Shown here: positions 4,814 through 49,878 of the stretch, one piece after another
Layout: the number at the start of each line of letters is the position of its first letter
Position numbering within the stretch: position 1 is the stretch's first letter
Assembly: GCA_964621395.1 (NCBI GenBank)
Contig: CAZULS010000001.1
Coordinates: 615-64,614, forward strand
From: an uncultured Candidatus Saccharibacteria bacterium
GTDB taxonomy: Bacteria > Patescibacteriota > Minisyncoccia > Phycocordibacterales > JACNGX01
Length of the DNA: 64,000 bases
Reading direction: 5' to 3'
Notes under the pieces: model-generated
What the model saw: the letters and a program-made list of their open reading frames with translations, nothing else
What the model was told of the DNA's origin: nothing
Database searches by the model: none
Translations under genes and position numbers: made by a program

Positions 4814-5356
4814 TTATTCTTCTACCCTATATCGCAACGTAATACGATCAGCAAGGATATGATCACTATCACTGAGCGTACCGGTAGATACTGAGACCTC
4901 ATACCCCTCTTTGAGATCATTTTTGCTGAGTGTTCGCATTTCAAAAGGCTTCGGAGGAGTTCCTCGGTATTCGGGATCACTCTCTATTGCCTCGGTATAG
5001 CGACTCATTGCTTCAGCATAGCTTTCAGTGCTCGAAACGCGAACATATTCAATGATGGCCGTCTCAGGCGTGATGGTATAGATGAGTGTATCGGGTGGAT
5101 TGTCCACACCGAAACGATCAGCATCCACAGCGAGAGTCAGAGTATCCCCTGAGAGCTCCGTAATGACCCCGGTCACTTCACTGGCAGGTACGCTTTTAAG
5201 GAGCATGGTCATTTCCGCCACATACGCGCGACGTGCGTCACGATGAGCCATGAAAAGAAAGGCACCGCACACGATAAGGACAATAAGAAGTGCTGAGAGA
5301 AAAATATTTTTGTTAGCGGAAAGTGAGGATGACATACTAGAAAGGAGGTTGATCAA
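4814..5356 (-). CDS. Hypothetical membrane-anchored protein (single N-terminal TM)
   Basis: N-terminal TM (FLSALLIVLIVCGAFLFMA). Overlaps the next gene by 20 nt, suggesting an operon. Confidence 0.5.
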   Translation of the reverse strand: MINLLSSMSSSLSANKNIFLSALLIVLIVCGAFLFMAHRDARRAYVAEMTMLLKSVPASEVTGVITELSGDTLTLAVDADRFGVDNPPDTLIYTITPETAIIEYVRVSSTESYAEAMSRYTEAIESDPEYRGTPPKPFEMRTLSKNDLKEGYEVSVSTGTLSDSDHILADRITLRYRVEE

Positions 5357-6080
5357 ATACGCCCCAAGAAGAACCTTTGTTTGCGTAACACTGCGGCAAG
5401 CTAGAGGTCGACAAGGCTTTGCAGCACACAGTGGTGTTCTGAGCTTTGGTACATTCTAATTCGCCCCTCACTATACTACCAGGCCATGAAGAATTCGAAG
5501 GATACGACCACGGCGTAAAGCTTGCACTTTCTACGCTCCAAGACCACGGCGTAAAGCTTGCAGAACGGCAGGACACGCTGCCATTACTAGCCTGTTTACA
5601 GCATTCCAATGAACCATACCCTTCGGAATCACAAGACCATGAATTAAAACCGTCACCACTTCCCCCCAAATCACTCGCCCATTCGCCGGAAGAACGAATA
5701 TATACATCATCGAAATTTGCCGTGCCACCACCGTAGGTATTCCCCCCAATCGACACGCCGTTTACCCAATCATTGAATCCATTGATGTAGAGTATTTCGC
5801 TGTCTTCACTGTATCGTCCGCCGATACTGCGCTTGTCAGCACTTGCTCCGTACCCGGCAAGGTATTGACTGTCTGAGGCATTGATACTGATAGTACCTGT
5901 TTTTGTTTGCGCTTGTGCGCCTGTAGTAAGTGGCGCGCCAACATTGTCCGCCGGAGGAAACGATGACGGCTCCGTCCATGCAGCCACATACTGAAGTCCT
6001 GCAGCAAGAAGCACACCTCCGAGAGCTGCGCCCAGAAGTCGTGTGGTGGATATAAGCTGTGTGGAAAGTGAGGATGGCAT
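5337..6080 (-). CDS. Hypothetical exported/anchored protein with a tandem SASFTPWSW repeat and a CC pair
   Basis: Hydrophobic N-terminus (LLGAALGGVLLAAGL). Repeat SASFTPWSWSVESASFTPWSY. Last (upstream-most) gene of the minus-strand surface-protein cluster. Confidence 0.5.
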   Translation of the reverse strand: MPSSLSTQLISTTRLLGAALGGVLLAAGLQYVAAWTEPSSFPPADNVGAPLTTGAQAQTKTGTISINASDSQYLAGYGASADKRSIGGRYSEDSEILYINGFNDWVNGVSIGGNTYGGGTANFDDVYIRSSGEWASDLGGSGDGFNSWSCDSEGYGSLECCKQASNGSVSCRSASFTPWSWSVESASFTPWSYPSNSSWPGSIVRGELECTKAQNTTVCCKALSTSSLPQCYANKGSSWGVFDQPPF

Positions 6081-6282
6081 ACAAAGAATATCGTCTTATG
6101 AATGGAAAGACGGTTTTAAACTATCGACTAATATATACGTGTATTATATCAATCTGTAATATCAGAGCAATTTGAGTATGTGGATAGTAGAACCAGTCTC
6201 ACTGAAAACGAAAAATATAAGGGGTTCGTATTCAAGAGCTGCGCTCGACGATTTTCAGTGAGCCTAGTTCTAGATTGAGTAA

Positions 6283-8214
6283 CTACTCCTCCACCGCCGC
6301 ATCATCGGCACTCACATTCGGGTCAGAAGAAAGATCAGTGTTGATATCACTATGGGACACAGAAATATTTGTATCGGTAAATGCGTCGTAGGCGCGCATG
6401 ACAATATCGGAGAACAGTACCGGACGAGAACCGACCTGAGTCACACTCGGAGTAAGCCCCACCTGAAACGCCGCTTCGGGGCCCGCCTCTTCCACGCCGG
6501 CACCAGCTTCAAGCGAGCCGATGGTCCAGGACACAGTACGGTTTGCGGCATTGTACGCAATATCGGCATACGACGGATTAACAGTACCTTTCCACTCCAC
6601 ACCTACGGGAAGTTTCCCTGAAACGGTTGTATTACGCAAATCGTTGGATGAGTTTACCGCCGAAAGCGCGATGGTGTATGTCGTTTCCTCTTCCGGTGTC
6701 GGCGGAATCGGTCCGATATTTGAAAACGGTCCTATGGAATGCAGCCCTCGGACGGCAATACGCATATCAGAAAAGACACGCACACTTCGCACAATAGCAT
6801 CCGAGTGTGACTCCATGACATCACCCTCCGCCTCGCGAATACCGCTTACATCAACTGAGAGGACGGTTTCGGGATTGCGAATACTCGTCCCCGAAACATC
6901 CACAAGCGCCTTTGAAGCGAAGTCAAATGAAAACATTCCCGATTCTCCCGGTTCAATTTCTTCAAGTCCCTTATACGTGTCGGTGCTCCAAAGAATCGTC
7001 CCTTTTTTTGAATCATAAAATCCATTTTTGGCATCAACACCATACTTATCAATCACATCACCGGAGAATGTGAGTTCGATCACCACATCGCGCAGCGGCA
7101 CGGTTGTGTTGTTGCGGTACGAAAGCGTCCCTCTCACCGCTTTCTCCGGGGCAATCACATAGCTGTCTTTCACCTCGCCTCCAAGCGCAAGCTGCATGCC
7201 AAGGAAGAGGTCACGCACGGCAATTGTCGTTTGGCTTTGATTATACATGACCGTCAGTTCTTCATGTTCGGCGGAATCAATCATGCCGACGCGCGCGCGA
7301 ATCGTTCGCTCATCATTATGCTCACCGCGAACAATGCCGCGAATGAGAATACTCGCATCACCGCCGGAAGGAATATCTCCCACATACCATACGGTATTTC
7401 CATACGACGGTTCGGGCTCGGCCGCAACCGGCTCAAAGCCAAAAGGGTACTCAAGAATCACCGCCACATCTTCAAGAAGCACATCAGTATTGGACACCAC
7501 CTCGATACCGATGTCAACCTCCTGTCCATTATTCACTTCATCGAGTGTCGAGAGTGTCATGCCGATTGGCGCCGAATCAATACGAATAGCATGCGACACC
7601 TCTTTGATAAACGTGGCACTCGAATTCGGCACACGATATTCCATGGCAATGCCAACACTCTTTTCGTCGTCCTCACTACCGAAGACCACACCTTGAATCA
7701 GCTCTTCTTTTGTCTCGCCCGGGGCAATCGAGCCAAGTGAACGATATTCCCGTGTGAGCTCTTCACCCGTCACATCATCAATGGCATGGAATCCGGGCGG
7801 ATACGTAATCACAATATTGGATCGTTCCAGCGTTTGGGAATTGTTATTGGTAATGGAAACCGTCAAATCCATATCATCGCCGCCGGAAATAGAAACCGGT
7901 CCTTCAAATGCAATATCCACACGATCTGAAGAAATTGTCACTCCCCCTCCGGAGAGAAGAAAAGTCGCAATACCAACGGCCGCGATAAAAAACACCACCG
8001 ACACACCAAAGACGACTTTCACAAGCCCTCCTTTTTTCTTGGAAGTGGGAAGTGCGGATTTTTCTCCCTCTTTCTTCCATTCCCGCGTAATGTCCCTGCC
8101 TCGCGAATAAAAAACGGGGCGAATCTCCCGCTCGCGTGAACGCCATTTCGGATCATACAGATTCTTTTTCACACGCTCAATACGTTCGGGCTTTTTCTGA
8201 GACTTCTTCTTCAT
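6283..8214 (-). CDS. Large membrane-anchored extracellular protein (644 aa), hypothetical
   Basis: Start trimmed to MKKKSQKKPE (ATG at 8214), because the upstream part of the ORF only translates the hairpin repeat (RIKCGMT). Basic N-terminus, then a TM (VVFGVSVVFFIAAVGIATFLL), then a long ectodomain with recurring YPPGF/YPFGFEP motifs. Confidence 0.6.
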   Translation of the reverse strand: MKKKSQKKPERIERVKKNLYDPKWRSREREIRPVFYSRGRDITREWKKEGEKSALPTSKKKGGLVKVVFGVSVVFFIAAVGIATFLLSGGGVTISSDRVDIAFEGPVSISGGDDMDLTVSITNNNSQTLERSNIVITYPPGFHAIDDVTGEELTREYRSLGSIAPGETKEELIQGVVFGSEDDEKSVGIAMEYRVPNSSATFIKEVSHAIRIDSAPIGMTLSTLDEVNNGQEVDIGIEVVSNTDVLLEDVAVILEYPFGFEPVAAEPEPSYGNTVWYVGDIPSGGDASILIRGIVRGEHNDERTIRARVGMIDSAEHEELTVMYNQSQTTIAVRDLFLGMQLALGGEVKDSYVIAPEKAVRGTLSYRNNTTVPLRDVVIELTFSGDVIDKYGVDAKNGFYDSKKGTILWSTDTYKGLEEIEPGESGMFSFDFASKALVDVSGTSIRNPETVLSVDVSGIREAEGDVMESHSDAIVRSVRVFSDMRIAVRGLHSIGPFSNIGPIPPTPEEETTYTIALSAVNSSNDLRNTTVSGKLPVGVEWKGTVNPSYADIAYNAANRTVSWTIGSLEAGAGVEEAGPEAAFQVGLTPSVTQVGSRPVLFSDIVMRAYDAFTDTNISVSHSDINTDLSSDPNVSADDAAVEE

Positions 8215-8304
8215 ACTATAATGATAGCAGACTGGTACGCTGGTTTCTAGTATCTGGTAGCCGGTTGCGCGCGCTATCGCGCGCTTCCACACAAACAAAA
8301 CCTT

Positions 8305-8383
8305 TGTCATCCCGCACTTGATGCGGGATCTAAAACGTAACGAAACCACTGACCCAAGATTCCGCATCAAGTGCGGAATGACA
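8305..8383. repeat. Two copies of the ~26-nt stem-loop element family (tgtcatcccgcaCTTGAtgcgggatc and gattccgcaTCAAGtgcggaatgaca)
   Basis: 8-bp stem with a CTTGA loop, flanked by TGTCAT...GATC. Other copies at 9272-9296, 9330-9355, 17562-17587, 17621-17646, 20575-20601, 20635-20660, 22627-22653, 25302-25327, 26674-26698, 35373-35398, 43440-43466, 51820-51846, 53007-53032, 54417-54442, 54478-54503. Confidence 0.8.
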
Positions 8384-8425
8384 GAAAAAAGTGATTTAAT
8401 CTGGAAACTTCACCGTTGTGTCGCA

Positions 8426-8475
8426 GCTCCTAAGGTTAAACCTTGGTATTTATACCAAGGTTTAACCTTAGGAGC
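8426..8475. repeat. Perfect 24+24-nt palindrome with an aaggtttaacctt core
   Basis: gctcctaaggttaaaccttggtat-tt-ataccaaggtttaaccttaggagc. Related palindromes at 16278-16333, 27398-27434 and 52028-52079. Confidence 0.8.
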
Positions 8476-8574
8476 TTTCGTACATTCGTATATATTCGTA
8501 CCATTTGTAGATTTGTATCTATTCGTATATTCGGAGTACCCGAGCTCTAAGCTAAAAGCTATCAGCTATAAGCT

Positions 8575-9123
8575 CTAAAGATGGCTTTCGGCAAGAGATG
8601 CCTGAACAGCTTCTTCTAAATGTGAAATTTCTTTTCCAGGAAGTACCCCTGTGGCATACTCCACAGCAACGCTTTCTTCTGCATATCCGAGTGCTGAAAG
8701 AATGGCATACTTTCCTGCAAGAAGCACATGCCTCTTTTCTTCCGCGCTTTCCGAATAAGAGATCAAGTCCATACTCATTGTGGCAACGACAAAAAGAAGT
8801 TCATTCCCCTCTTCACCTTTGATGAGCCTGCGGAGAAATGAGGAAAGTTCGGCGCAGTGCGCACAGCTCTCCAGTGCACACGCTTCCTTTCCTTTCGAAA
8901 AAATACCGGTAAGCGTCCATACATTCTTCCCGCGCACAATATCAATTGTCACATGTCGATATTCCGAAAGATGATATTTCATTTTTGAACCAATAAGACG
9001 AGAACCGCGAGCAACAACGCCGATAAGTCCAAAATCGGGTGTGAGTATATGAAGGAAACGATCGGCCTCTCCCGTGCCAACACTTGCGAGAATGATACCT
9101 TCAGTGTGGTAGATGTGATACAT
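8575..9123 (-). CDS. recO: DNA repair protein RecO (short form)
   Basis: N-terminal OB-fold signature TEGIILASVGTGEADRFLHILTPDFGLIGVVARGSRL. Cys cluster CALESCAHC. Confidence 0.6.
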   Translation of the reverse strand: MYHIYHTEGIILASVGTGEADRFLHILTPDFGLIGVVARGSRLIGSKMKYHLSEYRHVTIDIVRGKNVWTLTGIFSKGKEACALESCAHCAELSSFLRRLIKGEEGNELLFVVATMSMDLISYSESAEEKRHVLLAGKYAILSALGYAEESVAVEYATGVLPGKEISHLEEAVQASLAESHL

Positions 9124-30716: not shown

Positions 30717-30763
30717 CAACCTAATAAAAAGCCCGTAATAACCACATGATTACGGGCTGTTTC

Positions 30764-31177
30764 TTATTTTGTTGCGACAAATACAAGTTGATGCTTCGCA
30801 AGAACTTTCCCTTCATTCTCAAATACGACATCTGTAAGGCCTTTCATGCGAAGACTATCTTCACGTAAAATTATTACCTCGACAAACAAATCAACTTCGT
30901 GGTTCATGGGGATTTCCTTGAAATAACACCCAGAATTGGAAACAACTCTCATATTTGAAAAAAGAAGTCCTCTTTTCGCTGCTGTGTGTGCCATGTTCCA
31001 AATAGCAAACTCTTGATGGGTCATGTTTACATGATCACGATCCACAAGAGACTGGTCAACTTCTGGATTAAAAAGCACTTTACCTCTAAACGTAAAGCCA
31101 CTTAATGATGTCTTTTTAAACTCGCCCGACTGTAAATAGTGTGGACGCGGCGTTCCATGTAAAATTATTTTCTTCAT
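30764..31177 (-). CDS. Hotdog-fold acyl-CoA thioesterase-like protein (tentative)
   Basis: DRDHVNMTHQEFAIW resembles the 4HBT D-x-x-HVNN..Y motif. 137 aa. Confidence 0.45.
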   Translation of the reverse strand: MKKIILHGTPRPHYLQSGEFKKTSLSGFTFRGKVLFNPEVDQSLVDRDHVNMTHQEFAIWNMAHTAAKRGLLFSNMRVVSNSGCYFKEIPMNHEVDLFVEVIILREDSLRMKGLTDVVFENEGKVLAKHQLVFVATK

Positions 31178-35823: not shown

Positions 35824-35897
35824 GGGCGATTAGCTCAGTTGGCTAGAGCAATCCGTTTACACCGGAAAGGTCGGGGGTTCAAGTCCCTCATCGCCCA
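35824..35897 (+). tRNA. tRNA-Val (anticodon UAC)
   Basis: GGGCGAUUAGCUCAGUUGGCUAGAGC-A-AUCCG-UUUACAC-CGGAA..GGGGGUUCAAGUCCCUCAUCGCCCA. Terminator hairpin at 35900-35943. Confidence 0.85.
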
Positions 35898-35943
35898 CAA
35901 ATACACGAGCGCGGAGCATGACTCCGCGCTCGTTTTGTATTTG

Positions 35944-36152
35944 TGTGGCGATGAGGGACTTGAAGAGAGCTGTGCGCGAAGCCCGACAAGATTTATCTTG
36001 TCGGAGCACGGCGACGGGGTCGCGAGTTCTTAGTAAATTGCGAATACTTGGAGCAATATACTTAGAACTGGTGACCAAGTCCCTCATCAAAAAAATCCCG
36101 AAGCATGCCTTCGGGACCTTTGATTTTGTAGGACGATGAGGGACTTGAAAGC
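35944..36152. repeat. Inverted and direct partial copies of the tRNA-Val 3' end (tgtggcgatgagggacttgaa; caagtccctcatc; gacgatgagggacttgaaagc)
   Basis: Fragments at 35944-35964 (inverted), 36070-36088 (direct) and 36132-36152 (inverted), all downstream of the tRNA-Val gene. Confidence 0.7.
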
Positions 36153-36230
36153 CGCAGGCCGCGAAGCCGATTCCGACTTTCGGAGGAATCGAGGCCGAGG
36201 CGGGGTGAGAAAGCGAATGCCTGGAACTTT

Positions 36231-36306
36231 CGCAAGGTCTTTTGAGATATATTGAAAGGCTTTGCTTGAACAATATATCCAAAAGGTGTACTGCTCCTGT
36301 AAGGAG
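36231..36306. repeat. Copy A of a conserved ~75-nt module (..ttgagatatattg-aaaggctttgcttgaa-caatatatcc..ggtgtactgctcctgtaaggagg)
   Basis: Homologous copies at 48315-48393 and 48155-48228. The stem sequence differs between copies but the base pairing is retained. Confidence 0.7.
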
Positions 36307-36431
36307 GCAACACTTTGCGGATTATGAGCTTTAGCGAAATAATACGCTTAGTGATTCGTGATCGAGTCCATTACACTTACCTTCAATTTCCCCATGTATG
36401 GTATCTGAAAAATTTTTGATATAATTGTGGT

Positions 36432-37271
36432 ATGAGTGGGACAAACGTAAAAAAAGCAAACAACCCTCACAACTTGCCACTGGATAGTGTTTTGTTAGGT
36501 GACAATGTCGAAGTACTTAAAACGCTTCCTGATAATTCTATTGATCTCGTGGTTACAAGTCCGCCATATGATTCTGTACGTGATTACAAAGGGAAGCCAG
36601 AATTTGATCTGCACGCAACAGGTGAACAAATAGCCCGTGTGCTCAAGGAAGGAGGTGTTGCAGTGATGGTGATTCAAGATCAAACTAAGGACTTTGCAAA
36701 AAGTTTGACCTCATTTCGTACTATTGTTGACTGGGTGGACAATATCGGCTTACGGCTGTTTGAAACAGTAATCTATAGAAAACATGGCACTGAAGGCGCG
36801 TGGTGGAAGTATAGATTTCGCGTTGACCATGAATACATGCCAATTTTCCTCAAAGGAGCACGTCCACAATATTTCGACAAGGAACCACTAAAGATTCCAT
36901 CGAAACATGGTGGGAAGGTAATGACAGGGAGTGGAAACCGAAAAACTGATGGTTCAACAACAAAAACAGTCACGCGTCCTATCAATCCAATGAAGTGCAG
37001 GGGCACAGTATGGGATTATCTAATGGCAGGCGACAAAGACCCGCTCAAACGAAAACATCCAGCCGTTTTCCCAGACCAGATTCCCTTTGACATGATCCAA
37101 TGCTTCTGCCCCCCAGACGGCGTGGTACTAGATCCATTTGGAGGTTGCGGATCTACAGCAGTCGCCGCAAAACAGCTCGGCAGGAACTACATCGTAATAG
37201 ATGTAGCAGAAGAATATTGCAAACTGGCAGAACAAAGAATTTCCACTGTCCCAATACCTTTGTTTAGTTAA
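36432..37271 (+). CDS. DNA methyltransferase (beta-class amino-MTase, N4-cytosine/N6-adenine; DPPY motif)
   Basis: DLVVTSPPYDSVRDYKG catalytic motif and C-terminal FxGxG SAM motif (VLDPFGGCGSTAVAA). Convergent with, and overlapping by 8 nt, the candidate endonuclease gene. Confidence 0.85.
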   Translation: MSGTNVKKANNPHNLPLDSVLLGDNVEVLKTLPDNSIDLVVTSPPYDSVRDYKGKPEFDLHATGEQIARVLKEGGVAVMVIQDQTKDFAKSLTSFRTIVDWVDNIGLRLFETVIYRKHGTEGAWWKYRFRVDHEYMPIFLKGARPQYFDKEPLKIPSKHGGKVMTGSGNRKTDGSTTKTVTRPINPMKCRGTVWDYLMAGDKDPLKRKHPAVFPDQIPFDMIQCFCPPDGVVLDPFGGCGSTAVAAKQLGRNYIVIDVAEEYCKLAEQRISTVPIPLFS

Positions 37272-38316
37272 ATCTGCCTGGCTCCTCAATCGTATACTCA
37301 ATGTTGGTGCCGCTTGTCATTGCCATAGATAGCGGCTCCCTGTCCATCAGAGCAGTATAGGTGCCGTTGTTAAGTGTCGTTGCCGAAAAGTCGCCCTTGG
37401 AGAAGGTCTCGAGTCGGAACCCATCCCATGTCCAATTCTCTCGAACGTAGGGTATTCCAACATGTGTACTCATACTTGAAATGAACCCTTCAATACGCTC
37501 ACGCTCATTTTCATGTAAGTCGTACGTGTGACCACGCTGTACAAGATTGATCGGCAAACCACGCGGGTTAGATAACTTGAGCTGATGTCCAGACCTTTTG
37601 TTACGTCCGCCAGATTGATACTCGGCGCCATTGTAATAACCCTTTGCATTATATGTATCACGTAGTCGTAAAAAGGTATCCAGTCCTTCCATGATTTCAT
37701 AAAAACTGTGCTCGCTGGTACAAAAATGCTGATTCAAAATGTGTGCCGGATTGTCTATTTGCAGGTACTTGATCCAGTCCAAACAATTCTCTGTATAACC
37801 AAACAAATTGTTCCATACGCCATCCGCAAAAAGAAGCGGCCAGATTGCCTGTGGTGACAAGTTTGTGACAATGCCAGCGTGATGGAGAATACCCAGATAT
37901 AGATGAATTGCCCCAAATGGATATTTCCTCTGAAAATCTTTTTTACCATCAAAGCCGCGGAAGATGTTTGGCTGGATGCAATTATCGTAATGATAGTGTT
38001 GGTGAGTGATGCGGTTATTGTAGGTAACTAAGTGATTACCTAAACTTGGCACATTTGCCCTGTTTATTTCGACATCCAAAAATATACAGTCGTTTACCGA
38101 TAAACCATCTTTAATCACCAATACCTTGCCGTCGTAGTATCCCGCAACTTTTGCTCCCAAACAATGAGTGGCGAACAATCCACACAAAAAACCATCACTA
38201 TCAGGACCAAGCACTATATTCCTATCTCGTTCTATGATCCAAGGAAAAATATCAATCACTTTCTGATAGTCAAGAATTTCTCGTCCATCTTGTGTTTGTG
38301 TGTTTACATCAAACAT
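37264..38316 (-). CDS. Putative type II restriction endonuclease (cognate to the MTase; no family assignment)
   Basis: Position between the C-protein gene and the convergent MTase matches the classical PvuII/BamHI-like C-R/M layout. Start taken at MFDVNTQ (38316); the ORF track extends to 38370, overlapping the C gene. Confidence 0.5.
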   Translation of the reverse strand: MFDVNTQTQDGREILDYQKVIDIFPWIIERDRNIVLGPDSDGFLCGLFATHCLGAKVAGYYDGKVLVIKDGLSVNDCIFLDVEINRANVPSLGNHLVTYNNRITHQHYHYDNCIQPNIFRGFDGKKDFQRKYPFGAIHLYLGILHHAGIVTNLSPQAIWPLLFADGVWNNLFGYTENCLDWIKYLQIDNPAHILNQHFCTSEHSFYEIMEGLDTFLRLRDTYNAKGYYNGAEYQSGGRNKRSGHQLKLSNPRGLPINLVQRGHTYDLHENERERIEGFISSMSTHVGIPYVRENWTWDGFRLETFSKGDFSATTLNNGTYTALMDREPLSMAMTSGTNIEYTIEEPGRFN

Positions 38317-38317
38317 A

Positions 38318-38539
38318 CTACCGTGTGAAAAATGAAAGTTCTTTATTATATATCTTTGCAATCTCTTCAAGCTCTACAACATCAACTCTCCGTTCACCTC
38401 GTTCGATCTTTGATATGTAGGATTGAGGTCGTTTGAGTTTCTCTGACACCCCAACCTGAGTAAGTCCAGCTTCAAGACGAGCAGCTTTCAACTGCTCTAC
38501 AACCTTTTTATACTTATTAGAATACAGAGACCTGCTCAT
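38318..38539 (-). CDS. Controller (C) protein, XRE-family HTH, of the R-M system
   Basis: QLKAARLEAGLTQVGVSEKLKRPQSYISKIERGERRVDVVELEEIAKIY, typical of C.PvuII/C.BamHI-type regulators. Located immediately upstream of the endonuclease gene. Confidence 0.75.
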   Translation of the reverse strand: MSRSLYSNKYKKVVEQLKAARLEAGLTQVGVSEKLKRPQSYISKIERGERRVDVVELEEIAKIYNKELSFFTR

Positions 38540-38552
38540 ATAACGAGTTAAT

Positions 38553-38593
38553 GTTATAACCTATTGTGGAATAACCCAAAACAGGTTATGACA
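38553..38593. promoter_or_regulatory. Candidate C-box operator (tgttataacct-N19-aggttatgaca) upstream of the C gene
   Basis: Imperfect inverted repeat 14-55 nt upstream of the C-protein start. C proteins autoregulate via such palindromes. Confidence 0.4.
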
Positions 38594-38602
38594 TTAATCT
38601 CA

Positions 38603-38645
38603 CCACCACACAAAGACGTGCATTGAGCACGTCTTTGTGTGGTGG
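38603..38645. terminator. Perfect 19-bp hairpin (ccaccacacaaagacgtgc-attga-gcacgtctttgtgtggtgg) insulating the R-M islet
   Basis: Seen directly. Lies between the hypothetical gene at 39014 and the C-box region. Confidence 0.5.
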
Positions 38646-38935
38646 ATTATTACTGTTCTCACAATTTGTTCCTAGTTCCTAGGATACTAGGAACATTCCA
38701 TTTTGGGAAGTGCCAAAATGAAACCGAGCAAAGTCTTATCTTTCCCAATCCTCAATCACCAATGTCTTCCCTTTCTTTTTCACGACCACCTTTTGCTTTT
38801 CACGCCAGCCGAGCTCACGGACAAATTCAATCGGGAGTGTGACGGAGATTGTCCTTCCACGCCCTGTACGGAAGAGTTTACGGATATTGCGTTTACTGAG
38901 TATGCGCCGTGCCATATGTTTTAGTATACCACAGC

Positions 38936-38975
38936 CCTGCTCTAGAGCTAACTCTAGAGTTAGCTCTAGAGCAGG
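38936..38975. repeat. 40-nt perfect palindrome cctgctctagagctaa-ctctagag-ttagctctagagcagg
   Basis: Seen directly. It is also its own reverse complement. Lies just upstream of the 39014 gene. Confidence 0.8.
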
Positions 38976-39013
38976 TTCGTTTTTCCCAAAATCTCTGGTA
39001 CAATACCAATGCT

Positions 39014-39655
39014 ATGGCATCCGAACAATATTTGGCGAAATCTTTTGAGGAAGATTTTATACTCAAAACACTCAATGGGAAAGAAAAAGAACATTCCCAA
39101 ACAATTCAAAACATTCTGGAAACTCGCACGATACAGCCCAATACGTACAGCTTCGGACAAGAAAAAAGACTGGCATGCACATTCCTTCACGACAATTATC
39201 TGAAAACCTACCGTGCGCAAGGATTGATTTTTCAGACTCAACAAAAACCTGATTTCATTTATCCATTTGATATTGTCCTTCTTTCCGAAGCTGAAAAAAT
39301 AGTCGTGCAGTATTATAGAATTCAGCACCAACTGCATCTTCACTATAATCACGAATTGATTCCCGGTTTTGAACGATTTATTTTTGATGACATCCCCACT
39401 CTTTTGAAGAAATACCCAACGCAAGAAACACTCCTGGAAGACATTAATCGTTTTCGCATTGAGCATGGATACGGCGTTGTCCCCAAGCAAAAACGTAAGC
39501 TCATAGAGTACAACGAGGTCATCTTTCATGATCCCGTCGAAATCACTCCTATTGCTATCTTTGGATATCGATCAGCCGCACGAAAAATCGCCCGAGAATA
39601 CGGACTCCCTCATTTCACTTCTGCAAAGAAGTTTTATGAGTCTTTGGAGGGGTAG
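39014..39655 (+). CDS. Hypothetical protein (213 aa) in the R-M islet
   Basis: Start trimmed to MASEQYLAKS (ATG 39014), because the ORF-track start at 38909 would read through the 40-nt palindrome. No family motif recognised. Confidence 0.5.
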   Translation: MASEQYLAKSFEEDFILKTLNGKEKEHSQTIQNILETRTIQPNTYSFGQEKRLACTFLHDNYLKTYRAQGLIFQTQQKPDFIYPFDIVLLSEAEKIVVQYYRIQHQLHLHYNHELIPGFERFIFDDIPTLLKKYPTQETLLEDINRFRIEHGYGVVPKQKRKLIEYNEVIFHDPVEITPIAIFGYRSAARKIAREYGLPHFTSAKKFYESLEG

Positions 39656-39659
39656 GGGT

Positions 39660-39917
39660 TCGATTCCTGGCAGGGGCACTGATTCACAAAACACCACTCC
39701 CTTAAGGGAGCGGTGTTTTGCATCACGGCGCAAGCGCCGTAGAATCAGTGCCCCTGCCAGGAATGTCCCACAGTCACTAAGTAAAATACTTCGCCAAGGC
39801 TCGTATTTTACAAAGTGCTGCTGGACGCGGCTCGCGGTCTTCGCAGCAAGCTGCTCAGACATACTCCGCCGTTCGATTCCTGACGCGAGCCAAGCAGTTG
39901 GCTCGCTGCAGGGGCAC
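39660..39917. repeat. Array of partial tRNA-Arg(UCU) 3'-end copies and nested hairpins
   Basis: ggttcgattcctggcaggggcac (39662-39684). gtgcccctgccaggaat (39749-39765). gttcgattcctg-[acgcgagccaagcagttggctcgctg]-caggggcac (39871-39917). Followed by a 21-bp hairpin that closes onto the tRNA gene. Confidence 0.7.
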
Positions 39918-39950
39918 AAATGAAAAAGCCCTTCCGGACTTTTTCATTTG

Positions 39951-40022
39951 TGCCCCTGCCAGGAATCGAACCTGGAATGGGAGATTAGAAGTCTCCAGTT
40001 ATATCCGTTTAACTACAGGGGC
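39951..40022 (-). tRNA. tRNA-Arg (anticodon UCU)
   Basis: Minus-strand GCCCCUGUAGUUAAACGGAUAUAACUGGAGA-CUUCUAA-UCUCC..CAGGUUCGAUUCCUGGCAGGGGCA. Confidence 0.85.
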
Positions 40023-40394: not shown

Positions 40395-40934
40395 TTACAG
40401 AGTAACGTTCAAAAGCCGAAACGTATGCGAACCTCTCCATATGTCCTCCTCCCCGTTATACTGAAGGTCAATCTCGTCCACAGTAATATTCCATGGATAC
40501 GTTTCAAGAAGAGCAACGTAGAGGATCGACTGCTCCCATGTACCAACAGTTGTCACGCTAATATCAAGAGAGGAGATCTCTGTGCCGTCTGTTGGCTTCT
40601 CTCGTGTATCAATATCGTGCAGTGTGAGCACAACACCGGCAGACTCCCCCATGTCTTCTATACTATCAATCAATTGCAACATGCCGTCGTCTCCCTCAAC
40701 GATCCGCGAGCGAAGCACATCTCGAATGTCACGAGTCTGCTCAAAGGTATGCTCCACTTTTTTCGCCGCATCATTGTGTTGGGAAAGAGTGTACGACTCT
40801 TCTTCAAGAACCTGAATCTTCGTGAGAGTGTCGTATGTCATGTACGAAAGTGCCCCATACACACCCCACGCACCAAAAGCGGCGAAGAGTGCAATAACTA
40901 TGGTAATGGCAGTATGTGTATTCATACAGAACAA
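40395..40934 (-). CDS. PilO-like pilus assembly protein (tentative)
   Basis: N-terminal TM, then a coiled-coil-like region. Lies immediately downstream of pilN, and the gene order is as in the pilMNO operon. Confidence 0.4.
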   Translation of the reverse strand: MFCMNTHTAITIVIALFAAFGAWGVYGALSYMTYDTLTKIQVLEEESYTLSQHNDAAKKVEHTFEQTRDIRDVLRSRIVEGDDGMLQLIDSIEDMGESAGVVLTLHDIDTREKPTDGTEISSLDISVTTVGTWEQSILYVALLETYPWNITVDEIDLQYNGEEDIWRGSHTFRLLNVTL

Positions 40935-41486
40935 TTACTCCTGAAACGTCAATGAAAAATCAATATCATACTCACTGATAAAACTTCCCACGGGAATATT
41001 AATGCCGGAAAATCCTTCTGCTTCAAGTGCGCGAGCAAATCCGACCAAATCTTCTCTGGTATCGGCAATACCGTGTACATGGATAACTCCTCCTTCTTTT
41101 TCAGCATCATAGGCAATACCGCGCACAGAAACTCCCGTACGGGCATCCGCAATGCGAAGAAAAATACGTTCGTATACCAATGTGTGCGGTTCATAGACAT
41201 GAGAAAGCAACGCTACGGTTGCATTCATCTCATCGAGCTCTTCTTTAATTTCCTCAACATACGCTGCTTCCTCGCCTTCTCTTGCAAGGGTCATCCACTC
41301 CCGAACGATGTCATGTTCCATTGTATACCCCCAATACACAATTCCCGCAACGGCGGCGGAAAAAGCACCAAGGAGTGCGGCAAACACACCGGCGGTTGTC
41401 GTGAGATTCATGCGGTACGACGTACGCAATTCCTTTTTCTTTTGCACGGGTAAAAGATTGATCATACTTATGCCAGCCCCAATCAA
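40935..41486 (-). CDS. pilN: Type IV pilus assembly protein PilN
   Basis: MINLLPVQKKKELRTSY N-terminal PilN signature, followed by a TM. Confidence 0.7.
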   Translation of the reverse strand: MIGAGISMINLLPVQKKKELRTSYRMNLTTTAGVFAALLGAFSAAVAGIVYWGYTMEHDIVREWMTLAREGEEAAYVEEIKEELDEMNATVALLSHVYEPHTLVYERIFLRIADARTGVSVRGIAYDAEKEGGVIHVHGIADTREDLVGFARALEAEGFSGINIPVGSFISEYDIDFSLTFQE

Positions 41487-41626
41487 CCTCCGTACGGTAA
41501 CACATTACGGAATTTCGAGCGAAAAACGAGATGGAGCGCGCGCCATAACGAGTTATGGTAAGCGCGAAGCGAAGTTTTGTAGCCGAAATTCTGTGATGTG
41601 TGTACGGTTGTTGGTTGGGGATGGTA

Positions 41627-42709
41627 TTAACATGTCATGTGTGGCAATGCCAAGCCGATAACTGTGGCGTATCCAAGCGACTTATTGTGCGGAATAGGTG
41701 GAATATACATATCAAGCGAACAGCAGTTGGTCCACGGATTTCCCACACTGATAGGCACCTTGAGTCTGTGGGAAAGGAAAGGAGCCAGTCCGTTCATATT
41801 GGCACCGCCGCCGGAGAGCAAAATATCACTTATGCGCTGCTCGTCTTTGTGCTTTGCGTGATAGGTATGCCAATAGATATACAGCTTGTGTAATTCGTCT
41901 TCCAGGTGCTCAAGCGATGGGAGAAGAGCTTCGTAAAAATCCTTTTGTGCCGGATGGAGCGGTAGCGCATTTTTCATTTCCAGCACTTCTTCAGACGACA
42001 CCGACAATGCGGCTTTCAGAGCACGAGTAAATGTCTCACTCCCCATGTCGATGGTTGAGGTAAAACGCACAAGATTATTGTGAATGATTGACACGCCGGT
42101 ACGCAAACGACCGATATCGACAATCATCACGGCTGCTGAGCGTTTCTCCTCAGGAATAATCGCCCGAGCGATTGCCTGGCTTTCGATTTCAAACGACAAT
42201 GGGACAATACCCACTTCTTCAAGAACGGTTGCGTATCCTTCCACATCTTCGCGAGGCATTGCCGCCACCAACACCCGTATCGTGGATTCCGATGACAGAT
42301 CATCGAGAACGGTGTAATCAAAAATAACGTTCTCGGGCTTGAGCGGCACATATTCCTCAATCTGAAATGTAATACTTTCCCTGATTTCATTTTCCTCAAC
42401 GCGCGGAATATCCATGTGCACAATGTATGCACGCTCTTCCGGAAGCGATACATGTGCATAGGTGCAATGATAGGTACGTTTTACTCCCTGCATAATGGCC
42501 GAGAATTCCAGGGGTCGCTTGATGTGCCCGCTCACAATCACGCCCGGAGGAATGGTCATTTCTCCGTGTCGTTTGACTCTCAATGCGTCTTTTTCGCCAG
42601 ACAATTCAAGCACGCGCACTCTTCTATCGGTAATGTCGAGTCCGACCGATGGAAACGTCAATGCGCGCGGAACAGGCAATGTCTGTGCCAAAGAATCACA
42701 GATACTCAT
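41627..42709 (-). CDS. pilM: Type IV pilus assembly ATPase-like protein PilM
   Basis: Actin-like fold signatures VGLDITDRRVRVLEL...VDIGRLRTGVSII. Start trimmed to MSICDSL. Confidence 0.8.
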   Translation of the reverse strand: MSICDSLAQTLPVPRALTFPSVGLDITDRRVRVLELSGEKDALRVKRHGEMTIPPGVIVSGHIKRPLEFSAIMQGVKRTYHCTYAHVSLPEERAYIVHMDIPRVEENEIRESITFQIEEYVPLKPENVIFDYTVLDDLSSESTIRVLVAAMPREDVEGYATVLEEVGIVPLSFEIESQAIARAIIPEEKRSAAVMIVDIGRLRTGVSIIHNNLVRFTSTIDMGSETFTRALKAALSVSSEEVLEMKNALPLHPAQKDFYEALLPSLEHLEDELHKLYIYWHTYHAKHKDEQRISDILLSGGGANMNGLAPFLSHRLKVPISVGNPWTNCCSLDMYIPPIPHNKSLGYATVIGLALPHMTC

Positions 42710-42759
42710 AATACATGTATTATACCCGAAACACCCGAGCACGAACACGTCTCTGTGCA

Positions 42760-43404
42760 CTACATTGCAATAAGCCAAATCATGAGGCCCACAAAAGCAA
42801 TGCCGAGTGTGATCCATGCAATCATGCGCGGAAGAGACATGCCGGGCAACGCGCCGAGCCTGTCGGTCACATACGCAGCCAAACCAAAACGTACGATGCG
42901 AGAAATAATCGAAGCAATAACAAATATGGGAAATGAAACGGCAAACACACCGGCACCAAGAGTAAACAGCTTATACGGAATCGGGGTAAAGCCCGCCATA
43001 AAGACGGCAATGAATGCATTGTTTTGAAACGCTTCGGCAACAGCCTTAAACGCTTCATGAGCATGATACGTATCAAGAATCCATGTGCCCCAGGTATCAA
43101 AAAAGAATGCGCCGATGATAAATCCAATCATACCGCCAAATACCGAACCGGCTCCTGCAACGACAGCCGGTACCGCCCAATCGAGGAAACGGCGCAATCG
43201 CGAAGTCGCTCGCTCTTGTGCCATTTTCTTCAGTGAGACAATCGGAATGAGAAGCGCTTCCGGCGGTACGGGGAAAAAGACCGCCTCGGCGGCACCAAGG
43301 AGGAAAAGAAAAACGAGAGCGCCGCGCCCTTGGGCGCGGCGCGCAACCCGCTCCTTCAAAGAAAACTTCTTTCCCTCTTGTGTTATTGGTGTTTCAGGTG
43401 TCAT
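42760..43404 (-). CDS. DedA/YqaA-family membrane protein
   Basis: AVFFPVPPEALLIPIV core motif and multiple TMs. Confidence 0.7.
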   Translation of the reverse strand: MTPETPITQEGKKFSLKERVARRAQGRGALVFLFLLGAAEAVFFPVPPEALLIPIVSLKKMAQERATSRLRRFLDWAVPAVVAGAGSVFGGMIGFIIGAFFFDTWGTWILDTYHAHEAFKAVAEAFQNNAFIAVFMAGFTPIPYKLFTLGAGVFAVSFPIFVIASIISRIVRFGLAAYVTDRLGALPGMSLPRMIAWITLGIAFVGLMIWLIAM

Positions 43405-48063: not shown

Positions 48064-48540
48064 CATTTGAAAATCCCGCCCATTTAGGCGGTGATTTTCT
48101 TATGCGGAGAGGAGGAAGCCAACTGCTTGGCTTTCGTGAGGGATTCGAAAAGGTTCTCCCATATTTTTGAGGAGCTTTGCTCCGAAAAAATGGGAAACCT
48201 GCACTGCTCCTGTAAGGAGAGAATCCCTCCCTCTCCGCAGTGAACGAAGTGAATAAGGCGGTGGAGGGATTCGAACCCGTAGGGGGTCGGGGTGAGGAGC
48301 GAATACGTGGAGCTCCGCAAGACCTTTTGAGATATATTGGAGAGCTTTGCTCGAACAATATATCCATAAAGGTGTACTGTTCCTGTAAGGAAGGCGGAAC
48401 GCCCCCGTGGAGGAGGCAACGCGGAACCGTGGGTTCCGCGAGCGCAGTCCAGCCCTACTTTTTCAAAAGTAGGGCTGGACGAGCAGTGAGCATTCCCTCC
48501 CTCTCCGCATAAATAATGAGTCAGGTGCGTGTCCACATCC
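48064..48540. repeat. Array of tRNA-Ser 3'-end fragments (direct and inverted) interleaved with two copies of the conserved ~75-nt module
   Basis: Inverted acceptor + agccaactgcttggct hairpin + inverted T-arm at 48103-48149. Modules at 48155-48228 and 48315-48393. ccctccctctccgca repeats at 48235-48249 and 48499-48513. Confidence 0.7.
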
Positions 48541-48571
48541 CTATTGGTATTTGATATAGTATACTAAACAT

Positions 48572-49721: not shown

Positions 49722-49790
49722 GGACCTATGGTAGCACATGTGTTGATTGGGAGGAATTGCCTCGGAACCACCTAAAGTAAGTCGCTGGAT

Positions 49791-49838
49791 GTCGATTCCT
49801 GACGCAAGGCAAGCAGTTGCCTTGCTCCGAGGGGACAC
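49791..49838. repeat. Inverted tRNA-Arg(GCG) 3'-end duplicate with inserted hairpin (gtcgattcctg-[acgcaaggcaagcagttgccttgct]-ccgaggggacac)
   Basis: Same architecture as 39871-39917 and 48103-48149. The insert is homologous (aaGCAGTTg core). Confidence 0.7.
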
Positions 49839-49878
49839 AGCAAAAAGGGCACCCACAGGTGCTCCTTTCTGCAATGTG

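Follow-up and report, generated by a model that had tools for sequence, protein, structure and literature searches.

The 64,000-nt stretch of DNA analysed here (the window) belongs to an uncultured Candidatus Saccharibacteria bacterium (assembly GCA_964621395.1, contig CAZULS010000001.1, positions 615–64,614) and includes a convergent pair of tRNA genes, tRNA-Val(TAC) (35824–35898, plus strand; 65.9 bits in Rfam) and tRNA-Arg(TCT) (39950–40022, minus strand; 64.9 bits), both also called by ARAGORN. The interval between them is probably a mosaic of three layers. The first would consist of tails behind both tRNA genes, in which the tRNA's own 3' segment is repeated in alternating inverted and direct orientation. 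The second would be a pair of divergent resident genes between the tails, encoding an AbrB-like regulator with an operator of three 8-bp palindromes and a protein of 213 amino acids (aa), and the third an integrase-less type II restriction-modification (R-M) cassette of 2.2–2.4 kb, inserted with the Val tail on one side and the AbrB-like gene on the other. Made up of a methyltransferase (M), a candidate restriction endonuclease (R) and a controller (C), it is a true type II R-M cassette under C control, follows an ordinary logic and was recently inserted in a variable inter-tRNA interval. Such a cassette is in itself routine. More worthy of attention are the family of R, unannotated and possibly made up of DHH-like nucleases, and the lineage-wide tRNA tails.

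The insertion is visible by comparison with L148, a metagenome contig of 1.45 kb that is collinear with the window and carries, in the same order, a Val-type tail, the AbrB-like gene, an intergenic palindrome, the 213-aa gene (its product 94% identical) and an Arg 3'-end copy, with no M, R or C. Homology to L148 stops at window position 36369, inside a degenerate tRNA-Val copy, and resumes at 38734, at the stop codon of the AbrB-like gene; 178 unrelated bases are found there in place of 2364 bases of the window. The missing segment (36370–38733) holds M, R, C, the operator of C (C-box) and a perfect palindrome (palindrome 1). Because L148 keeps the tails and both the AbrB-like and the hypothetical gene, the real insert is only about 2.4 kb. 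An earlier note on this DNA had taken the whole 4.2-kb Val-Arg interval for an islet that arrived by site-specific integration, had read the tRNA copies as the footprint of this event, and had proposed to look for an empty site in relatives. In general terms, the idea of an integration is supported by the insertion polymorphism and by the left junction in a tRNA-Val copy, and L148 is such an empty site for M, R and C. The extent of the islet and the reading of the repeats do not hold, since the remainder of the interval is present in L148, where the AbrB-like and hypothetical genes reside with the same tails, and since the Val tail is about 98% identical in L005, a relative without R-M.

The partial tRNA 3'-end copies at both edges of the interval are real (none expected in shuffled sequence), and about half of them are inverted, the orientation alternating along each tail. 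The Val tail (35899–36371, plus strand) is an array of tRNA-Val 3'-end copies, hairpins and spacers, in which a terminator hairpin (35905–35933) is followed by an inverted 3'-end copy (35947–35964, 18 of 18 positions matching), spacer B1 (35965–36075), a direct copy (36076–36088), a hairpin (36096–36116), a second inverted copy (36131–36149), spacer B2 (36150–36358) and the degenerate direct copy (36359–36371). The Arg tail (39657–39949, minus strand) shows, from the tRNA outward, a terminator hairpin (39918–39949), an inverted copy split into two parts (39871–39882 and 39908–39917) by a 25-nt hairpin (39883–39907), spacer B (39765–39870), a direct copy (39748–39764), hairpins (39687–39741) and a further inverted copy (39657–39679, 23 of 23).

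A tail unit starts within the tRNA gene itself. The last 20 or so nucleotides of the tRNA are followed by a short trailer, a terminator stem-loop with a T-run, the complement of the trailer and the inverted 3'-end copy, and the whole forms one hairpin. In tRNA-Val, the segment from the T-loop to the discriminator (35878–35896) is the left arm of a 38-bp hairpin (fold of −73 kcal/mol, z −11), and the tRNA-Val hairpins have 36–40 bp and −60 to −71 kcal/mol. The hairpin is followed by a spacer of 60–210 nt and a direct copy that starts within the T-loop, after which the pattern recurs. Val trailers from seven genomes are 52–72% identical, yet each is still self-complementary, and bulges always lie on the 3' arm. 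The spacers constitute one family common to different tRNAs and genomes. Their recurring parts include the 25-nt hairpin GCGAGCCAACTGCTTGGCTCGC, which interrupts inverted copies where acceptor and T-stem meet, a module of the form GGTGAGAAAGCGAAT...GTACTGCTCCTGTAAGGAG, an AT-rich hairpin with GKGAC behind it, immediately before the direct copy, and a covarying closing helix.

As judged by sequence comparison, the tails are a lineage-wide feature of these Patescibacteria. Equivalent tails occur behind Leu, His and Arg tRNAs in relatives, and of the 24 tRNAs examined, most are followed by exact copies of at least 11 nt and none is preceded by one. The distance from the tRNA end to the first inverted copy is always 46–51 nt. 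Two more tails are present in the window, behind tRNA-Ser(TGA) (48065–48570) and tRNA-Arg(GCG) (49786–49877); they repeat the 3' end of the respective tRNA in both orientations and include the 25-nt hairpin and a module of 68 nt that shares 91% identity with positions 36239–36305 of the Val tail, and no island adjoins them.

The tails can be both old and labile. Positions 35898–36152 of the Val tail are about 98% identical in L005 (in which UppS is 80% identical), with two compensatory pairs in the terminator, and the intergenic DNA upstream of tRNA-Val is clearly less conserved between the two. Because this degree of conservation is found in a relative lacking R-M, the tails are older than the cassette. 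Homology to L005 ends exactly past the second inverted copy, and unrelated genes follow there. At tRNA-Leu(CAG), L005 has a three-unit tail (5150–5718) where the window has a plain terminator (30717–30780), and the downstream genes differ as well, which indicates that tails are gained or lost on short evolutionary timescales. In L011 one tail unit has been perfectly duplicated in tandem. On the Arg side of the interval, homology to L148 reaches precisely as far as the outer edge of the 39657–39679 copy. Three independent homology breakpoints thus lie at copy edges, at 36152 (L005) and at 36369 and 39680 (L148), and because of this coincidence a role of the tRNA-derived copies as recombination sites is favoured. 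The tails are conserved structured arrays in ultra-small Patescibacteria genomes, placed exactly where gene content differs between relatives, and they offer a concrete, testable handle on DNA exchange in integrase-poor genomes.

It is possible, if doubtful, that the tails are devices of the transcript instead, serving as terminators or fail-safe hairpins that trap read-through, or as processing signals, with the coincidence of breakpoints being secondary. The inner stem with its T-run is a canonical intrinsic terminator, and the preservation of a 36–40 bp hairpin by compensatory change in seven genomes, the fixed 46–51 nt to the first inverted copy and the covarying closing helix of the spacers are all in keeping with such a role. 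Less easily reconciled with it are the three breakpoints at copy edges, the tandem duplication in L011, the turnover at tRNA-Leu(CAG), and the direct copies, for which no RNA role is obvious.

A stronger version of the recombination-site role is unlikely. According to it, the tRNA 3' end, the terminator and the inverted copy would together make an attC-like site, and spacer modules and cargo would be captured, shuffled and exchanged by a recombinase encoded elsewhere; R would at the same time represent a new, DHH-like fold class of endonuclease. The tails do resemble integron attC arrays in having imperfect palindromes with bulges on one arm that alternate with variable segments, and they resemble arrays of repetitive extragenic palindromes (REP) and bacterial interspersed mosaic elements (BIME) in the alternation of inverted repeats with two linker classes. 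These are resemblances only. The R''/R' consensus (RYYYAAC / GTTRRRY) was not detected, the window has no recombinase motif, no IntI or RAYT gene was found, and the repeated sequence is tRNA-specific rather than genome-wide.

Other identities for the copies were also considered. The inverted copies are not retroelement primer-binding sites, as their sequence corresponds to the tRNA gene, not to the mature tRNA, and includes no complement of CCA, and ARAGORN and Rfam recognize no tRNA-like genes among the copies. Scans of GTDB genomes and viral contigs with spacer motifs found nothing. Viral scans with a tRNA-Val 18-mer and a tRNA-Arg 22-mer returned only real tRNA genes or a chance match within an open reading frame (ORF), and no attP-bearing element. 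Only chance matches were obtained with a 14-mer of the conserved hairpin, and literature searches on tRNA-tail palindromes gave nothing relevant.

The three cassette genes described in the earlier note are all present, as are its hypothetical gene and its two perfect palindromes. The controller gene (38318–38539, minus strand) encodes a 73-aa Xre-type helix-turn-helix (HTH) protein (HTH_3 E 2.6e-12; PADLOC Control_protein E 2.5e-6) and stands directly upstream of R in the same orientation. A small HTH gene precedes R in every relative whose contig reaches there (L001, L002, L007, L008 and L149); in L003 and L009 the contig ends or no gene is called upstream of R. The two genes had been described as overlapping, but if R starts at its ATG (38316), a single nucleotide lies between this codon and the stop codon (TAG) of C. 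The gap is also 1 nt in L001, and L007 has a 4-nt overlap.

A candidate C-box, postulated before, was located at 38556–38589 on the minus strand, ending 16 nt upstream of the C start codon. Its pattern, ATAACC-N7-GGTTAT-N9-GGTTAT, occurs once in the window and in none of 100 shuffles, and close variants are present in L001 and L149. L007 and L008, from Ignavibacteriaceae, have the same layout of three half-sites with a different sequence (ATATTCC-N5-GGAATAT-N8-GGAATAT), which indicates that the operator diverged together with its protein. At the M promoter, nothing resembling a C-box was seen. Palindrome 1 (38603–38645; 19-bp arms, −37 kcal/mol, z −9.4) is situated upstream of the C promoter and is likely a bidirectional insulator or terminator at the cassette edge; in L007, too, a terminator hairpin closely precedes the C-box. 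A similarity of palindrome 1 to the Val trailer was estimated to be at chance level.

The methyltransferase gene (36432–37271, plus strand) encodes a beta-class N4/N6 DNA methyltransferase (PF01555 E 3e-31; PADLOC MTase_II E 1e-39). It has both motif IV and the motif I of S-adenosylmethionine-dependent methyltransferases, the latter as DPFGGCGST near the C-terminus, the order typical of the beta class. Motif IV, previously given as DPPY, is SPPY (residues S43–Y46, DNA 36558–36569). In beta-class enzymes SPPY indicates N4-cytosine rather than N6-adenine methylation, and on this general ground M is predicted probably to produce N4-methylcytosine; its relatives in the PDB include N4-cytosine methyltransferases such as M.PvuII (1boo, E 3e-13). 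M and R are convergent with an 8-nt 3' overlap, which is kept in all relatives. GGCC and GATC are strongly under-represented across the window (observed/expected 0.37, z −7.5, and 0.63, z −5.8, respectively), which suggests restriction pressure on those sites and is not attributable to this cassette.

The regulatory circuit would be an ordinary one, working in the manner of Esp1396I or AhdI. M would be transcribed from its own promoter, and C would bind the C-box upstream of its own gene and thereby set the level of the C-R transcript. R would appear only once C has accumulated, and palindrome 1 would shield the C promoter from read-through.

The candidate endonuclease gene (37264–38316, minus strand; 350 aa counted from the ATG) has no match in Pfam, NCBIfam, PADLOC or among PDB sequences, whether searched as single sequence or as profile, and tblastn against plasmids and phages gave none. 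About 200 close homologues, all unannotated and all of about 340–350 aa, are found in Patescibacteria, Woesearchaeota and Ignavibacteriaceae. An exhaustive profile search extends the family to 650 clusters (at 50% identity), in the distant ones of which only the N-terminal 190 or so residues are retained and the C-terminal half varies. In P0442 (623 aa, from the representative library) an N6_N4 methyltransferase (residues 20–255) is fused to the N-domain of the R family (residues 310–496). Cross-phylum synteny, this natural fusion, and the combination of a conserved, presumably catalytic half with a variable half fit a family of restriction endonucleases, and R is a candidate for the nuclease of a type II R-M system.

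The AlphaFold (AF2) model of R has a mean confidence (pLDDT) of 96.4, and the top Foldseek matches in the PDB are all DHH/DHHA1 phosphoesterases (DhhP, RecJ, NrnA, Cdc45), at weak scores. Residues D39, D41, D62, K64, D81, H95, D165 and E176 are invariant. Among them, D39/D41 (in SPDSDG), D81, H95 and D165 come after consecutive strands, arranged like DHH motifs I–IV. R thus agrees with RecJ, NrnA, DhhP and Cdc45 in the residue order DxD, D, (G/N)H, D; it differs from them in having no sequence-level relation, a template modelling (TM) score of about 0.3 and a different C-terminal half. R may tentatively be called DHH-like. DHH/DHHA1 proteins are known as exonucleases or as nucleotide phosphodiesterases and not as endonucleases with sequence specificity, and literature searches found no DHH-fold restriction enzyme. 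If R is a DHH-like nuclease, an extra catalytic fold would join the short list used by restriction enzymes, and if the assigned function is right, hundreds of 'hypothetical' genes would receive a name, as the family of about 650 clusters in Patescibacteria, DPANN archaea and Ignavibacteriaceae is entirely unannotated.

The same structural matches could be taken to mean that R is a phosphoesterase of DHH type whose substrates are nucleotides or short RNA, as with NrnA or DhhP, in another defence or toxin-like module with an orphan methyltransferase and an Xre regulator. This is improbable. The exclusive matching to a fold of mostly exonucleases and nucleotide phosphodiesterases, the failure to detect any known restriction-enzyme fold or family, and the lack of a DHH-fold precedent in the literature searched agree with it, but a compact module of C, R and M that includes a C-box is the signature of genes lethal when expressed early, the synteny holds across phyla, a fusion to the methyltransferase exists, and the N-domain is kept while the C-terminal half varies, as is expected of catalytic and specificity domains.

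Returning to the mosaic, the cassette is also found elsewhere. C-R-M partners recur in seven further contigs (L001–L003, L007–L009 and L149, of which L007–L009 share one protein, P0118), in at least five distinct contexts, and in addition to the M-R fusion. R is 93% identical at the aa level in L001, 79% in L149, 75% in L002, 58% in L003 and 42% in L007–L009 (Ignavibacteriaceae), and its 3' end overlaps a convergent N6_N4 methyltransferase gene in all relatives, L003 and L009 included. The cassette core (36412–38597) has 90.6% nucleotide identity to L001, where it lies in a different context beside a LexA-like gene. In L149 it starts 125 nt past tRNA-Arg(TCT), facing the tRNA the same way as in the window, with a degenerate Arg-type hairpin unit or copy distal to it. 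By this distribution, the C-R-M trio is a conserved mobile cassette, ranging from Patescibacteria to Ignavibacteriaceae.

That the whole Val-Arg interval is one island, integrated site-specifically in a tRNA gene with the copies as attL/attR scars, is very unlikely and largely refuted by L148 and L005: tRNA 3'-end copies are a classic att signature, the left insert junction lies in a Val copy, the L149 cassette adjoins tRNA-Arg(TCT) and L014 holds other genes (NUDIX, MFS, MscS) between the two tRNAs, but neither interval nor window has an integrase, L148 retains the tails and the AbrB-like and hypothetical genes without any R-M, the Val tail is conserved at 98% in the R-M-less L005, the same tails stand at tRNAs without an island, simple integration would not leave half of the copies inverted, and the same cassette is also found at non-tRNA sites.

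Several points weigh against the mosaic and against the roles assigned to its cassette genes. L148, a contig of 1.45 kb, bears no tRNA gene, so its collinearity is deduced from the tail sequences. The right insert junction (38734) has no tRNA copy; a TGTTCTCA match there is not significant, as half of the shuffles score at least as well. No recombinase was found to account for the movement of the cassette: Pfam detected no integrase among the eight interval ORFs submitted, and tyrosine-recombinase box II, alone or together with LGH..Y, is in no ORF of the window. The matches of C to C proteins that have been characterised are weak (C.Esp1396I, 3clc, E 2e-4; C.BclI, E 1e-3), and generic XRE proteins score higher. 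In the searches made, the R family lacks recognisable membership of a nuclease family. The best fold match of R has an E-value of only 8e-4, and DhhP (9r99) was matched with a Foldseek probability of 0.93 at TM about 0.30. The Pfam DHH profile (PF01368) touched 1 of the 62 R-family members, at E 0.21, and the R profile found no DHH/DHHA1 protein, or any other, among PDB sequences.

The two genes between the insert and the Arg tail are, as judged by L148, residents outside the R-M cassette. The AbrB/MazE-type gene (38736–38915, minus strand), absent from the earlier note, encodes a DNA-binding protein of 59 aa (PF04014 E 2.6e-6, 27.7 bits, above the curated cut-off), which is 81% identical in L148 and is encoded there too beside the hypothetical gene. 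The latter (39014–39655, plus strand) codes for the conserved 213-aa protein, without a Pfam domain; its family comprises 216 homologues with 52–94% identity, confined to Patescibacteria and DPANN archaea, and in other genomes its members stand alone beside housekeeping genes. The AF2 model (pLDDT 89.5) gave only weak matches to the ADP-ribosyltransferase fold (CteC, DarT).

Between these divergent genes lies palindrome 2 (38936–38975), a perfect palindrome of 40 bp with 20-bp arms (z −8), which consists of three palindromic octamers CTCTAGAG at 12-bp spacing. L148 has three TTCATGAA-type octamers, with variation in the outermost bases, at equal position and spacing (approximately 648–690), and the AbrB-like proteins of the two contigs differ mainly in the N-terminal 20 residues. 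Since octamers and N-terminus change in parallel, palindrome 2 is probably a co-evolving operator rather than a terminator.

Among known systems, Esp1396I and AhdI have the closest layout. In the published accounts (PMC2691842, PMC2275141), M and the C-R operon are convergent, a small gene for an Xre-type C immediately precedes R, and a palindromic operator with several half-sites is placed upstream of C, as in the window. The window differs in its half-sites (ATAACC/GGTTAT), in showing nothing C-box-like at the M promoter, in an R unrelated to any characterised enzyme and in a distant C (E 2e-4). The layout had been likened to that of PvuII, a comparison that is not upheld. PvuII has M and C-R in divergent orientation and an overlap of C with R; here M is convergent, with the 8-nt 3' overlap, and a gap of 1 nt lies between C and R. 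PvuII is similar in its C-dependence and in having an N4-cytosine beta-class methyltransferase with an SPP(F/Y) motif.

The tails have partial parallels. In Escherichia coli tyrT, units of 178 bp each contain the last 19 nt of tRNA-Tyr; these are likewise tandem units behind a tRNA gene that repeat its 3' end, but all of them are direct, they are limited to one locus, and neither inverted copies nor a common spacer family occur there. Integrative and conjugative elements (ICE) and cis-mobilizable elements (CIME) accrete in tandem at the 3' ends of tRNA genes. Tycheposons of Prochlorococcus are tRNA-seeded islands with scattered partial tRNAs (10.1101/2020.12.28.424599). They share with the interval the variable DNA beside tRNA genes, the serial partial 3'-end copies and a content that differs between relatives. 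The tails differ from them in alternating copies, 36–40 bp hairpins, a fixed 46–51 nt spacing, non-coding units of about 100–200 nt, the lack of a nearby integrase and the high conservation of the arrays between species.

Several further observations concern the surroundings of the cassette. A LexA-like (Peptidase_S24) gene directly follows M in L001 (2195–2872), L002 (2116–2736) and L003 (2032–2661), and in L002 a large serine recombinase is encoded 2 kb beyond it. Contig L001 ends at window 38597 and L004 at window 38965; independent assemblies thus end on reaching the two perfect palindromes or slightly short of them. Assemblers evidently fail at these structures, and short contigs are therefore of limited use for the flanks. 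A scan of GTDB genomes with the flanking protein UppS yielded no relatives. The guanine-plus-cytosine content is 42.6% in the core (36412–38645), 42.2% in the interval (36372–39656) and 46.8% in the window, and the interval is among the lowest 3% of 3.3-kb windows.

In L014, a more distant relative, the same convergent tRNA-Val/tRNA-Arg(TCT) pair (5048–8589) encloses genes for a NUDIX hydrolase, an MFS transporter and an MscS channel, which suggests an old pairing of the two tRNAs with variable content between them. Beyond tRNA-Arg, the window continues with pilM, pilN and pilO-like genes (40395–42817). In L003 the R-M cassette is less than 3 kb from a pilMNO cluster, but on its other side.

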